Assembly (NCBI GenBank): GCA_965197905.1
Contig: CBDAOB010000005.1
Coordinates: 2,496,001 to 2,560,000 of the forward strand
Source: Candidatus Latescibacterota bacterium
GTDB lineage: Bacteria; Latescibacterota; UBA2968; UBA8231
Length of the DNA: 64,000 bases
Direction: 5' to 3'
In this document: positions 16,844 through 21,099 of the stretch, piece after piece
How the letters are laid out: each line of letters opens with the position of its first letter
Numbering within the stretch: the stretch's first letter is position 1
Position numbers and translations under genes: made by a program
Notes under the pieces: model-generated
Database searches by the model: none
What the model was told of the DNA's origin: nothing
The model's input: only the letters and a program-made list of their open reading frames with translations

Positions 16844-17500
16844 GTGCTTTTTATTTTTATAGCGCTATTGGTCGCTGCCGGACCGACCCTCGCCGGTGAG
16901 GAGACCGTCGTTTTCAGCGAGATCATGTGGATGGGAAGTACCGGATCCACCGCTGACGAGTGGATCGAACTTCACAATCACTCAGATCGGGCAGTGGATC
17001 TCGTTGGTTGGGCGATAACCCGAATGACGGCCGAGGGCGAGCGTTTAATGTTGGCGATCGAAAGCGGAACCCTTGCCCCACGGGGCGTTTTCCTGATTTC
17101 CAATTTTGCCCCCGACGACCCGCGGTCCCGCCTCGAGGCGATACCGAATCTCGTAAGCAGTTCGGTCGCCTTGGCAAACTCGAAGTTGCAGTTGCGCCTC
17201 TATGACGGTGCGCCGTCGAGCGACGGCACCCTGGTCGACGTCGCCGATGACGGCTCGGGTGCACCGCTGGCCGGCGATCCCAAACTCAAACAATCGATGG
17301 TGCGCATCGACTTTCAGGGAGATGGCACCGAGTCTGCCCAGTGGGAGACCGCGACAGAGTCGCAGGGGTGGGATGATGACGCCTCGGAGCTCGGCACGCC
17401 CGGCTCGATGCCGGGCCATCTGATGGAATCGGCGGAGCAGGAGCGGACCGCTGTTCAGCGCGAAAGCTGGGCCGGCTTGAAGGTGAGTTTCACCAGATAG
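16844..17500 (+). CDS. Secreted lamin-tail-domain (LTD) protein with C-terminal SWAGLK motif
   Basis: GGAGG RBS then GTG; signal peptide; VVFSEIMW..DEWIELHN..VDLVGW..LVD..GTPG. Confidence 0.82.
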   Translation: MLFIFIALLVAAGPTLAGEETVVFSEIMWMGSTGSTADEWIELHNHSDRAVDLVGWAITRMTAEGERLMLAIESGTLAPRGVFLISNFAPDDPRSRLEAIPNLVSSSVALANSKLQLRLYDGAPSSDGTLVDVADDGSGAPLAGDPKLKQSMVRIDFQGDGTESAQWETATESQGWDDDASELGTPGSMPGHLMESAEQERTAVQRESWAGLKVSFTR

Positions 17501-17523
17501 ACTGCAACACTCGGCGGTAGGAT

Positions 17524-18456
17524 CTATCGCCGGAAGGAGCGCTTGAGGATGCCCCAGGAGGTGGCGGTTACGCTGGTCGGCCGAAAGCGCTGCTCCAGGG
17601 GCATGAGGATGACGTCGGTAAAACGATCGGCCAGCAGGTGCGCGTTCTGCCCGCCCGAGAGCGACCATCTGGCGTCGGCGATATTCGGACCGCGCGCATC
17701 GAAGTCCCAGAACTCGACGTTCACCCCGATGATCTCATCCTCAACGAGACGGTGCTCGCGGCTGAGGAAAGCGGCGCGCATGTCAACGCGATCGAAGGGG
17801 ACGAGCATGAGCTCGTAGTTTGTCACTGTCGGTCCTCCCACACCACCGCTGACTGAGTAGGACGCGGCCGTGAACGAGCCCTCCGGCAACGCATACCAGC
17901 CAGCAGCTGAAAAATTGACGAAGAAATCGTCATCTGGTGGCGGGCCGGCGATAGTGAACCATTGCGCCTGCGACCCGGTGAGCTGGAGCTGCTCTTCGGC
18001 GGTGACGTTGCGGAAATTGCCGTATTGCCCTCCAGAGTGGTCGGCGTCCAAGTAAACGCTCATGTTGTCGTCTTGCCAAATCAGCAACCCGGCTGTTCCT
18101 GAAGGCCGATCGATTTGATGAAAATCATCGGTAACCTGCGCGGCGAAGAAGAGTTTGTTTTCGTTTTTGTTCCAACCCATCCGGAGTTGAACCGAAAAAT
18201 CGTTCTCATCGAGCTCCCCGGCGTCGATCAAATCGACAAATCGCTCCGTGGCAACAAGGTAAGACTCGTCAACCATTGCCCAGTCGCCGAGATCGCCATC
18301 GATGGTAGGCACGAGGTCATCCGTGAATTGAAAAGCCTTGAACACTGTCTGCACCGGAAGATGGGGATAGGCAAGCTGGGGGAAACTGCAGAGCACAAAC
18401 CAAACGATCGCAACCTTGATCCGCAGAAATCGCGATTCAGACACGATCGAACCCAC
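17524..18456 (-). CDS. Secreted CBM9/DOMON-like sugar-binding protein with C-terminal SWGILK motif
   Basis: PTIDGDLGDW, MGWN..KLFFAAQVTDD, WQDD..VYLD, YELMLVPF. The start may be GTG 18444. Confidence 0.75.
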   Translation of the reverse strand: MGSIVSESRFLRIKVAIVWFVLCSFPQLAYPHLPVQTVFKAFQFTDDLVPTIDGDLGDWAMVDESYLVATERFVDLIDAGELDENDFSVQLRMGWNKNENKLFFAAQVTDDFHQIDRPSGTAGLLIWQDDNMSVYLDADHSGGQYGNFRNVTAEEQLQLTGSQAQWFTIAGPPPDDDFFVNFSAAGWYALPEGSFTAASYSVSGGVGGPTVTNYELMLVPFDRVDMRAAFLSREHRLVEDEIIGVNVEFWDFDARGPNIADARWSLSGGQNAHLLADRFTDVILMPLEQRFRPTSVTATSWGILKRSFRR

Positions 18457-19132
18457 TCAGTGTGCGAATACGCGTTTCGATCACCCGCATGAGTTCGGAT
18501 AGTTCCGCGTGTTCATTGGATAGAATGGGTTCGCCGACGCGGAAGAAAACCCGGGATAAGGGTCGCGAAAAACTCTCGTATTCGAGACCGATGGGAATGA
18601 TCGGTATGCGCAGTCCATGGTTCTTCTCCACATGCAGGGCGTGCTCCACGATTTCCTTCTGCAGGCTGCCCATTTCGTCTTGAAATCGCATTCCCTCGGG
18701 ATGGGAGACAATCAACTCTCCGCCGCGATACAACCATTCCAGGTAGTCCAGCGTCTTCTGATTCTTTTCCCGGGCTCCTTTAATCAACGACCTTCTGGCA
18801 TCGCGATCTTTGATCTTTCTGATGTCTTTCGGGCGCACGATCTTTATGCCACCCGGCGCCTCCAACAGACTGTAGAGTCCCGCCTTCATGACGTAGGTAG
18901 CAAGTCGTCGCGTAGCTCGGTAGAGCTGCACCCCTTCCAGGATGATATCGCGGTAGGCTCGGTGTTTCGGCAGAATGAGAGCGGTGCCTGTGTGCGGCAA
19001 AAATTCCGCGCCCTCCATCGAGACTCGATGGTACAGGAATGCCCGCGCTCCCAACCAGCGGACCGACTGCGCGACTGCATCTATCCGTCGTAACGAATAG
19101 CCGTTTTTCGATTCGGGGGCCGTCTTGTCCAT
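18437..19132 (-). CDS. plsC: Lysophospholipid acyltransferase (PlsC family)
   Basis: HX4D motif (KHRAYRD), HPEGMR, IPIIPIGL..FRVGEPI. Confidence 0.8.
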   Translation of the reverse strand: MDKTAPESKNGYSLRRIDAVAQSVRWLGARAFLYHRVSMEGAEFLPHTGTALILPKHRAYRDIILEGVQLYRATRRLATYVMKAGLYSLLEAPGGIKIVRPKDIRKIKDRDARRSLIKGAREKNQKTLDYLEWLYRGGELIVSHPEGMRFQDEMGSLQKEIVEHALHVEKNHGLRIPIIPIGLEYESFSRPLSRVFFRVGEPILSNEHAELSELMRVIETRIRTLSGFDRV

Positions 19133-19139
19133 TGGGCAT

Positions 19140-19169
19140 AAAAAAGGAGGCTTGCGAAGGTAAGCCTCC
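19140..19169 (-). terminator. Rho-independent terminator
   Basis: Minus-strand hairpin GGAGGCTTAC-CTTC-GCAAGCCTCC followed by T6, downstream of the 19201 gene. Confidence 0.75.
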
Positions 19170-19200
19170 CGAAGATCCCGCTGTTCGATTCGATTTCTGC

Positions 19201-19692
19201 TTATTGGAAAAGTTCCTTGATCTTGCCCCAGGTGCTCTCGTCTATCTCGGTGACAACACCCCTGTTTCCCGCTTGTGCCAGCACACGGCCCAAATCGCTT
19301 CCGGGACCGTCGGCGACTATTCGCCCATCCGCGTCGACGAGGATCGCGTGGTCATTCTCTTGAGCAAAGAAGGATTCCAGCTCTGTTGGCATTTCGATAC
19401 GCGCGGCTGCCCGGGTCATCAGCTGGTAAGACAGCTGGAGTTCGTTTTCCGAGATAGACTCTTCTCGTACAATCCCCGTCACCACAAGATCGGCGCCAAA
19501 CGGCTGGACGAGCCGCTGCAGATCCACGGCGCGCTCCCGTTGTTCCGCCTCTTCCAACGAAAAGAAATAATAGAACCGCTCGGAAGCTCCCTCGTTTCGC
19601 CTTACCCTCTCATCGCCACGGGCGCTTCCGTTAGTGACGCAGAGGAGAGCGACGGCGACAAGGGCGAGCGAATGGGGCATTCGGTGTTTCAT
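19201..19692 (-). CDS. Secreted hypothetical protein, possibly a degenerate thioredoxin-like fold, with C-terminal TWGKIK motif
   Basis: Signal peptide; HAILVDADGRIV resembles the terminal beta-hairpin of redoxins; no CxxC. Confidence 0.7.
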   Translation of the reverse strand: MKHRMPHSLALVAVALLCVTNGSARGDERVRRNEGASERFYYFFSLEEAEQRERAVDLQRLVQPFGADLVVTGIVREESISENELQLSYQLMTRAAARIEMPTELESFFAQENDHAILVDADGRIVADGPGSDLGRVLAQAGNRGVVTEIDESTWGKIKELFQ

Positions 19693-19815: not shown

Positions 19816-21099
19816 TTATTTGCAACTATTTACGGTTTTTGATCGAGCCAATACGTACGGACCTTTGGGCACGGCGACTATGGAAGCATTACGGCCGTGG
19901 CGATCCAGAGCTTGTTCGAGTCCCGCCTCCAACGATTCTACATGGTCTATCAGAAGTCGACCGGCGAACCGGGTGTCGATGCCTTCGGAGAAGAGTTTTA
20001 CGTCTGCTTTTTTTAGTACCTTACACAACTCTTGCAGTTGCCATTGGTCGATGACGAAAAATCCCGGATCGTCCAGACGTTCCATAAACGCCTCCACGTT
20101 CGGGGTGTCCGTGATCAGCTCGGTAAATTCGGGACTTCCGATCCCTTCCTCGCAACGAGCCGCGATCAATATGGTTCCGCCCTCTTTCAGAATGGGAAGC
20201 ACCGACGTCAATCCCTTGACCGCCTGGTAAAACGTCAGATCCAAGGGGAAACCGGCGCTGCATGTAATCACCACATCTACCGGCTTGCTTACATAGGCAG
20301 CGTTTTGAGTTTCGACGAATCGAACACCCTCGTCGTGCGCCTTTTCGAGATCGCCTGCGAACACGCCGGTGATTTCGCGCTGGGCGTTCATAGCTACGTT
20401 CAAGGTGAAATCCACCCCGGCTTTCTGCGCGACTTCCAACGCCTGCCGGTGAAACGGATTCCCTTCGATGATTCCTTCAGAAGAGTTGGGGTCGCCCATA
20501 AGCTCGGGACCGTGCAGAACCCGCATGGTCTCCACCCCCATGAGCCCGGGGCAGATCGCTTTGCGCCCGCCGGAGAAACCGGCCATGAGGTGGGGTTCGA
20601 TCAGCGAGGTAGCCACCTTCAAGTCTGCCTCGACGTAGATCCGATCTATCCAGATCGGTGCGCCGCACGATGTCTCACCGAGGTGCACCAGAGACTCCCG
20701 ATCTCGGGCCCGGTGGTTCACCACGATGTAGTTATCGGCGACCTCCGAGCCAACCAGCGAGACCAGCTCTTCCCCTTCGTTGGCACGGTGCAGCCCTGTT
20801 CCGATAAGAATCGTGATCGCTTCCCGGTCGATCCCAGCTTCTTCCAATGTCCGTAGCATCGGCGGCAGTATGGTGCTGTTAGGGACGGGGCGGGTGATAT
20901 CGGAGATTACGATACACGCGTTTTTTCGCCTTCGGGCAAGCTTGCCTAGGGCTGGTGTGCCGATGGGGCGTGACAGCGCGTTCTCGAGCGCCTGGTCCAC
21001 CATCGGCAGGCCCGGTGCGGGGTCCATTTCGAGAACCTGCGTTCGTGGAGGGACATCAAGCTCGATGCCATCATGGCCGTAGTCCAACCGAATCTTCAT
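19816..21099 (-). CDS. larA: Nickel-pincer-dependent lactate racemase family protein (LarA)
   Basis: SDITRP, GTGLHR, PHLMAGFSGGRK, VLHG, FYQAVK match the LarA active-site residues. Confidence 0.93.
   Translation of the reverse strand: MKIRLDYGHDGIELDVPPRTQVLEMDPAPGLPMVDQALENALSRPIGTPALGKLARRRKNACIVISDITRPVPNSTILPPMLRTLEEAGIDREAITILIGTGLHRANEGEELVSLVGSEVADNYIVVNHRARDRESLVHLGETSCGAPIWIDRIYVEADLKVATSLIEPHLMAGFSGGRKAICPGLMGVETMRVLHGPELMGDPNSSEGIIEGNPFHRQALEVAQKAGVDFTLNVAMNAQREITGVFAGDLEKAHDEGVRFVETQNAAYVSKPVDVVITCSAGFPLDLTFYQAVKGLTSVLPILKEGGTILIAARCEEGIGSPEFTELITDTPNVEAFMERLDDPGFFVIDQWQLQELCKVLKKADVKLFSEGIDTRFAGRLLIDHVESLEAGLEQALDRHGRNASIVAVPKGPYVLARSKTVNSCK

Follow-up and report, generated by a model that had tools for sequence, protein, structure and literature searches.

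Three neighbouring genes in a 64,000-nucleotide stretch of a Candidatus Latescibacterota genome (GCA_965197905.1, contig CBDAOB010000005.1; the whole stretch is hereafter called the window) encode unrelated proteins that end in the same short tail, 17-20 residues long and with the consensus (P)-T-[AS]-V-E-x-x-[ST]-W-G-x-[IVL]-K-x-x-[FY]. The tail is confirmed as a real, widespread and uncatalogued C-terminal tag. We propose, with confidence about evenly divided for and against, that it may be a cleavable helical mini-signal of the attachment pathway in type IX secretion systems (T9SS).

A tail shared by unrelated exported proteins

The first of the three is a lamin-tail-domain (LTD) protein of 218 residues with a signal-peptide-like N-terminus (16844-17500, + strand), whose tail (17447-17500, +), made of a T-A-V front and a W-A-x-L-K helix, runs to the stop codon; the second is a CBM9-like protein of about 306-310 residues from the largest tail-bearing family (17524-18456, - strand; tail 17524-17577, -); and the third is a small exported protein of 163 residues without a Pfam family (19201-19692, - strand), which ends in an invariant subtype of the tail with Glu after the Thr (19201-19251, -). 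All three open reading frames (ORFs) and tails were confirmed. The names that the original prediction gave the proteins held to different degrees: LTD is backed by a Pfam match (E 2e-10), CBM9-like by a CBM9_1 match (E 3e-4) that lies under the Pfam cutoff, and redoxin-like by neither a Pfam match nor a CxxC motif. The tail is kept in 50 of 79 homologues of the LTD protein and 116 of 120 of the CBM9-like protein (score of at least 10 in both cases) and in 10 of 10 homologues of the third protein, and the homologues that retain it span 44-97% identity.

Seeded with only these three tails, a scoring matrix was run on codon-based calls of 5,645 genes in the source genome (G000; 6.69 Mb in 5 contigs, 91% complete). 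Scores of at least 15 were reached at 10 of 1,266 near-terminal Trp sites, three of them the seeds, versus 1 of 27,629 internal Trp sites, a contrast which argues that the tail is not due to chance; two dehydrogenase-like C-termini and a few others that scored with the matrix lack the motif and were excluded. The full tail is carried by 11 proteins of G000 (the LTD protein, the CBM9-like protein, two of the FGE-sulfatase fold, two Temptin_C, one DUF1554-like, and four with no secure Pfam assignment), and 182 tail proteins collected in all were grouped by BLAST into 68 unrelated families, which takes the motif well beyond the proteins on which it was noticed. The expected link to signal peptides also appears: by a crude hydrophobicity rule they are present in 9 of the 11 tail proteins versus 1,080 of the 5,634 other genes. 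Tail proteins are small, with a median of 314 amino acids from stop to stop in G000 versus 628 for proteins with a T9SS C-terminal domain (CTD). A Pfam family was found for 18 of 56 representatives, and among the cargo are domains of the surface type (thioester domain, beta-helix, PKD, CBM9, CBM96 and X25).

Searches blind to position returned the same C-terminal placement. The DNA pattern T-A-V-E-x-x-[ST]-W-G-x-[VIL]-K, run over GTDB contigs, gave 112 loci from 7 of 64 parts (an estimated 1,200 or so stretches), mostly in records of Latescibacterota, 'Gemmatimonadota' metagenome-assembled genomes (MAGs), Handelsmanbacteria and Eisenbacteria. The Trp lies 7-16 residues before the stop codon in 107 of them, and 3 are interrupted by Ns or the end of a contig. 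The other 2 are internal copies, one in an Oscillospiraceae MAG and one in a Streptomyces, genomes with 0 and 1 weak profile matches. A 70-row profile of the tail, searched with HMMER against 1.84 billion proteins, gave 269 matches at E<=0.001; among the best 150 of these the last copy is at most 18 residues from the end in 148, and the longest protein has 599 amino acids.

Trp and Lys are invariant, Gly is nearly so, and the spacing from Thr to Trp is fixed at 7 residues. Among 71 representatives, Thr is present in 58, Ala, Ser or Gly stands right after it in 58, and the final position is Phe or Tyr in 46; the Trp sits 7-17 residues from the protein end. In the motif first described, the terminal Phe and the stop 1-2 residues further on are typical and not fixed features. 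Trp, Ile and Phe share one helix face flanked by Lys/Arg, and the pattern (Ser/Thr before the Trp, Ile/Val/Leu at +3, Phe/Tyr at +7) would fit a capped amphipathic helix. As had been observed, there is no transmembrane (TM) helix, the part after the Trp being about 9 residues long and charged. The earlier idea, an amphipathic helical tag for secretion or anchoring, is a candidate reading beside that of a docking peptide. The tail matches no known family: 26 tails gave no Pfam match and 70 tails no NCBIfam match beyond single chance rows, none of the window proteins matched a CTD model (TIGR04183) in NCBIfam, a search of the ESM Atlas with the tail returned nothing, and no description was found in literature searches by motif and by taxon with sorting, which covered mostly open-access papers.

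The front half resembles a T9SS cleavage site

The likeness of the leading T-x-V to the linker that precedes T9SS CTDs, noted earlier, can now be counted. T[ASG][VI] occurs 15-23 residues before the PNPF motif of the CTD in 35 of 69 CTD proteins of G000, with 0, 0, 1 and 6 in shifted windows and a background of 4% in a first count. The slot holds the motif in 12 of 27 CTD proteins of five other tail-positive genomes, in 0 of 17 from three genomes without the canonical sortase PorU, and, in two PorU-positive tail-less genomes, in 0 of 10 under the strict and 3 of 10 under the relaxed motif (6 of the 60 loci compared were without a usable motif). Two papers describe PorU cleavage, one by a PT/GI consensus, a preference for a small residue behind the cut and a distance of 19-30 amino acids to motif B (PMC11969387), the other by a rule of T/E/D/N before and G/A/S after the cut, with a Cys/His dyad (PMC10202324). 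In sequence, the tail front fits both descriptions. The third window protein has Glu in place of the small residue that both sources prefer after the cut, and so is predicted to be poorly cleaved.

Tail genes are interleaved with CTD genes; at one locus of genome G120 (L222:7407-19713), tandem tail-bearing PD40 proteins alternate with CTD proteins. In a giant CTD protein of G000 (C5:2591830-2597538, -), the residues S-W-G-K precede the PNPF motif by about 20 positions.

Distribution of the tail and of the T9SS components

G000 contains 83 TIGR04183 CTD matches together with SprA and some ten barrels of the PorV family, and it has two C25 genes, of which one is a canonical PorU adjoining PorV (C5:2580488-2584141). 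Over 120 genomes of the phylum (families f1-f14), the tail was found in f1 (40/40, with 3-65 copies per genome), f5 (1/1), f6 (2/2), f7 (1/1), f9 (5/6), f11 (3/3), f12 (1/1) and f13 (3/3); the 13 genomes of f10 gave two single weak matches, and the tail was not found in f2 (0/29), f3 (0/13) and f4 (0/2; together 0/44), f8 (0/5) or f14 (0/1). Judged by the NF033707 cut-off, canonical PorU is present in 7 of 7 Latescibacterota that have the tail, in 22 of the 24 tail-positive genomes from elsewhere, and in 0 of 11 genomes of f2-f4. The f2 and f3 genomes tested retain 10-19 CTD matches; members of f2, f3 and f4 (G007, G063, G057 and others) lack canonical PorU and the T-A-V linker but still have SprA, a long C25 protein and some proteins with a CTD, and we regard them as carrying a reduced type IX system.

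As a candidate tail-linked component, SprA is uninformative, being nearly universal (113 of 121 genomes), and a dedicated PorU paralogue is not needed in G083, G120, G003 and G009, each of which has a single C25 gene. No tail-specific peptidase or translocon was found among the candidates compared, and the lineage-specific machinery of the original prediction is not supported in that form: PorU and the NTF2-fold lipoprotein described below occur in tail-less lineages too.

The back half resembles the terminal helix of a lipoprotein

Top HMMER matches with repeated tail copies led to two G000 lipoproteins, LipA and LipB (C4:1530329 and C4:1530915), and to their operon (C4:1525586-1531568; L320), which encodes a propeller-CTD protein, two PorV/PorQ-like barrels, an M50-like peptidase and the two NTF2-fold lipoproteins. 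The operon recurs in f1, f5-f8 and f10, and in part in f9, f11 and f13, and it tracks canonical PorU; beside LipA, an M50-family gene gave 29 matches over 30 f1 loci and is present in most other families as well. A single query finds the LipA family in 39 of 40 genomes of f1 and in none of the 44 of f2-f4. A profile finds it in all 24 of the other tail-positive genomes, one of them by a weak match (E 4e-6), with as many as nine matches, and in 0 of 12 from f2-f4.

Where the operon recurs, tail-less families included, LipA has the C-terminus [ST]-W-G-x-L-R-x-x-F or a close variant of it and no T-A-V front; LipB is without a terminal helix outside f1. The AlphaFold2 model of LipA has an NTF2-like fold, and the confidence of its terminal helix (pLDDT) is above 90. 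The W-G-x-I-K helix of the tail matches this terminal helix in sequence, and expanded copies of the LipA family often end in the mobile tail form. On the simplest reading, the mobile tail would join a PorU-type site to a copy of the LipA helix, and the tail helix probably arose from the LipA terminus.

A cleavable signal or a docking peptide

We picture the tail as a portable two-part peptide on small Sec-exported proteins. After export by Sec, the short amphipathic helix W-G-x-I-K would serve as an address in place of the beta-sandwich CTD and would be recognised by a T9SS-associated reader, either the LipA/LipB module or a PorV/PorQ-like barrel. The cargo would pass through SprA, the PorU sortase would cut the T-[AS]-V front behind its Thr, as it does in cargo with a CTD, and the protein would then be attached to the surface or released. 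We favour this pathway because the T-A-V front is common to the tail and the CTD cleavage slot and fits the published rules, because SprA, PorV-family barrels, PorU and CTD proteins are all present in G000, and because the tail co-occurs with canonical PorU and LipA, both of which were not found in f2-f4. It is further favoured by the make-up of the LipA operon, in which a propeller-CTD protein, PorV/PorQ-like barrels and an M50 peptidase come together, by the interleaving of tail and CTD genes, and by the surface-type domains of the cargo. More speculatively, and with a good deal less confidence, Latescibacterota, Eisenbacteria and allied phyla may possess, in addition to the beta-sandwich CTD, a code for export and docking that is based on a helix, in which a helix derived from an NTF2-fold lipoprotein is read by LipA/LipB of a PorKLMN-free type IX machine, with a Ser-nucleophile PorU in some lineages.

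A number of observations weigh against a cleavable T9SS signal. The PorU of G000 keeps the His and has Ser at the position of the catalytic Cys of PorU 6ZA2, which we take to be the nucleophile C690. Ser occupies this position in nine aligned rows (G000, five more from f1, one from f6, G137 and G143), and the Cys is retained in the remaining ones, from f7 and of the Eisenbacteria type, one row being a wrong ORF; in those genomes, either PorU works with its Ser, or it binds the motif and leaves it uncut. Three genomes (G083, G120 and G009) lack a second C25 gene yet carry 17-59 tails. PorU lies above the cut-off in 5 of 5 genomes from the tail-less families f8, f10 and f14, so that the tail goes with PorU but PorU does not imply the tail, and LipA too occurs in these three families; the genomes compared are kin, their counts are not independent, and the absence from f2-f4 may be one loss. 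No tail-specific PorV clade appeared among 39 barrels (the best 30 of 68 foreign matches included), and GldM, the one component of the PorL/M motor and PorK/N ring that was searched for, was not found in a search without a positive control. Among the best 150 profile matches, 14 have 2-4 copies of the tail, internal, tandem or N-terminal, which a terminal cleavable signal does not need, and part of the cargo looks periplasmic (LTXXQ, multiheme cytochrome). When the 182 tail proteins were compared by BLAST, only 8 matched a protein that bears a CTD; most of these matches are partial and one is a false CTD call, so direct swaps between tail and CTD stay hypothetical. PorU cleavage has been called sequence-independent (PMC4804311), and the T9SS signals described so far all have beta structure and a length of at least 43 amino acids (PMC11969387).

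Repeated copies, periplasmic-looking cargo, the lack of a tail-specific barrel clade and the scarcity of swaps keep alive a second explanation, which we consider possible and less probable than the first: the tail may be an uncleaved docking peptide whose helix binds a groove on an envelope lipoprotein (the helix-less LipB or a FlgT/CsgG-fold lipoprotein), so that small proteins would be tethered, in the manner of a dockerin, to the cell surface or within the periplasm. The tandem, internal and N-terminal copies would suit such a role, as would the Cys-to-Ser change in PorU and the confidently modelled LipA helix on its NTF2-like fold, with a paralogue, LipB, that is helix-less outside f1; two G000 paralogues of tail proteins end, by eye, in a dockerin-like segment instead. 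The same holds for the invariant subtype of the third window protein, ending S-T-W-G-K-I-K-E-L-F, which is single-copy in 16 of 121 genomes from six families, sits on bodies that barely align (in G003 little remains beyond signal peptide and linker), and is encoded directly after a FlgT/CsgG-fold lipoprotein gene in 11 of 16 loci. A docking peptide, however, leaves unexplained why the T-A-V front stands at the CTD cleavage slot; of the 24 other tail-positive genomes, only 5 gave the FlgT-fold gene at full length, and both it and LipB are found in tail-less f10.

It is improbable that the helix instead lies on the inner membrane and that the M50 peptidase of the operon releases or transfers the protein, by a rhombosortase-like logic without a TM segment: the M50-family gene does adjoin LipA and the tail helix is amphipathic, but that helix is short and charged, the gene is also present in tail-less f8 and f10, the 1.5 kb around LipA showed none in Eisenbacteria-type loci, and the front fits the PorU rule. 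We think it similarly unlikely that the tail acts without a receptor, as an amphipathic anchor in the membrane or a C-terminal cap that protects against proteases, which would suit the Trp, Ile and Phe face with its Lys/Arg flanks, but not the invariant Trp and Lys, the near-invariant Gly, the fixed Thr-Trp spacing and the tie to PorU, all of which point to a protein reader. That the tail is what remains, without function, of a CTD that was truncated, of which it has the linker motif at its start, is very improbable and largely refuted by its conservation across diverged homologues and 68 families, and its helix has no counterpart in the CTD.

Associated lipoproteins, a 950-residue family and neighbouring genes

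In most of the wider regions examined in relatives, the gene order is LarA-like, FlgT/CsgG-fold lipoprotein, invariant-tail protein. In G000 the LarA-like gene, a synteny marker (19816-21099, -), and the invariant-tail gene lie in the window, and the FlgT/CsgG-fold lipoprotein gene is about 250 kb off (C5:2267512-2268552; L298:5513-6553). An acyltransferase gene (18437-19132, -) stays adjacent to the invariant-tail gene in genomes of genus g6. The FlgT/CsgG-fold lipoprotein is a two-domain, FlgT-like protein with fold matches that include PDB 3W1E and 6SI7; within the phylum it occurs in the tail-positive Latescibacterota and in f10 and f14, and we rejected it as a universal tail reader because it was mostly not found in the other tail-positive genomes.

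A second family, of outer-membrane-like proteins of about 950 amino acids, has 60-65 paralogues in G000, linked to ExbBD, a TPR protein and a TonB-like lipoprotein. It follows the tail within Latescibacterota except in f10 (13/13) and f14 (1/1), and was likewise rejected as a universal reader, since only 3 of 24 other tail-positive genomes have a match; we regard the FlgT-fold lipoprotein and the 950-residue family as a client system of the tail and not as its general reader. Relatives of the CBM9-like protein often adjoin an ExbBD/950-residue-protein operon, and in tail-less f10 a CBM9-like protein beside a 950-residue gene (L218:7574-8641, -) ends, by eye, in a PKD-like segment and not in the tail. 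One such operon of G000 (C5:471194-492212; L216, L217) lies beside ExbD-ExbD-ExbB and encodes two F5/8 proteins with a CTD-like end, three unannotated proteins of 900-950 amino acids, a TPR protein, DUF4159 and a TonB-like lipoprotein, and many 950-residue paralogues adjoin sulfatase- and glycosidase-like genes; the 950-residue/ExbBD set is possibly an undescribed outer-membrane import system. Elsewhere, a tail-like stretch lies in frame just 5' of the probable start of an FG-GAP-type gene (L010:3210-4940, -), perhaps as a relic of a lost upstream gene.

Significance

If the proposed pathway is correct, a 17-residue helix would be the smallest T9SS signal, the described ones being folded beta domains, and it could easily be tested as a fusion tag. 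The tail would also predict the surface proteome of several uncultured phyla, and its T-A-V front gives a precise cleavage prediction that is usable in metaproteomics. The operon of LipA/LipB, M50 peptidase and PorV/PorQ-like barrels, together with the Ser-PorU, provides concrete and so far undescribed candidates for type IX function outside Bacteroidota.

Comparison with known systems

By the features compared here, the tail belongs to no CTD type and to no tripartite CTERM family. LPXTG/sortase, PEP-CTERM/exosortase and GlyGly-CTERM/rhombosortase signals are tripartite, with a TM helix followed by basic residues and a dedicated sorting enzyme. Like them, the tail is a short portable C-terminal tag on unrelated exported proteins; unlike them, it has neither a TM helix nor a basic cluster behind one, and no dedicated sorting enzyme was found, PorU, the M50 peptidase and LipA all being wider in distribution than the tail among the genomes compared. 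The gene for a FlgT/CsgG-fold lipoprotein 5' of the invariant-tail gene recalls CsgG/CsgF, whereas this lipoprotein has two domains and is not found in most other tail-positive genomes.

In placement the tail resembles type A CTDs of the T9SS (TIGR04183, PF18962; PorV shuttle; PorU sortase NF033707, PDB 6ZA2), which are also C-terminal, sit on signal-peptide proteins of unrelated folds, carry a linker motif of Thr and a small-hydrophobic pair, and are encoded in the same genomes by interleaved genes; SprA, PorV and PorU are present as well, with a PorU Cys/His dyad that is not intact in G000 and the f1/f6 rows. A type A CTD is, however, a beta-sandwich of 70-80 amino acids with motifs B, D and E, whereas the tail is a helical peptide without those motifs or a TIGR04183 match, on smaller cargo and with internal and repeated copies. 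Type B CTDs (TIGR04131) are a precedent for a separate signal with its own, often adjacent barrel (PorP/SprF; PMC10202324, PMC12618676); they are beta domains and probably uncleaved, and for the tail no specific barrel clade was found. The short CTDs of Prevotella intermedia, at 43-55 amino acids, still have three beta-strands and motifs B, D and E, none of which the tail has, but they show that a T9SS signal can become shorter without losing its cleavage at PT/GI-like sites (PMC11969387).

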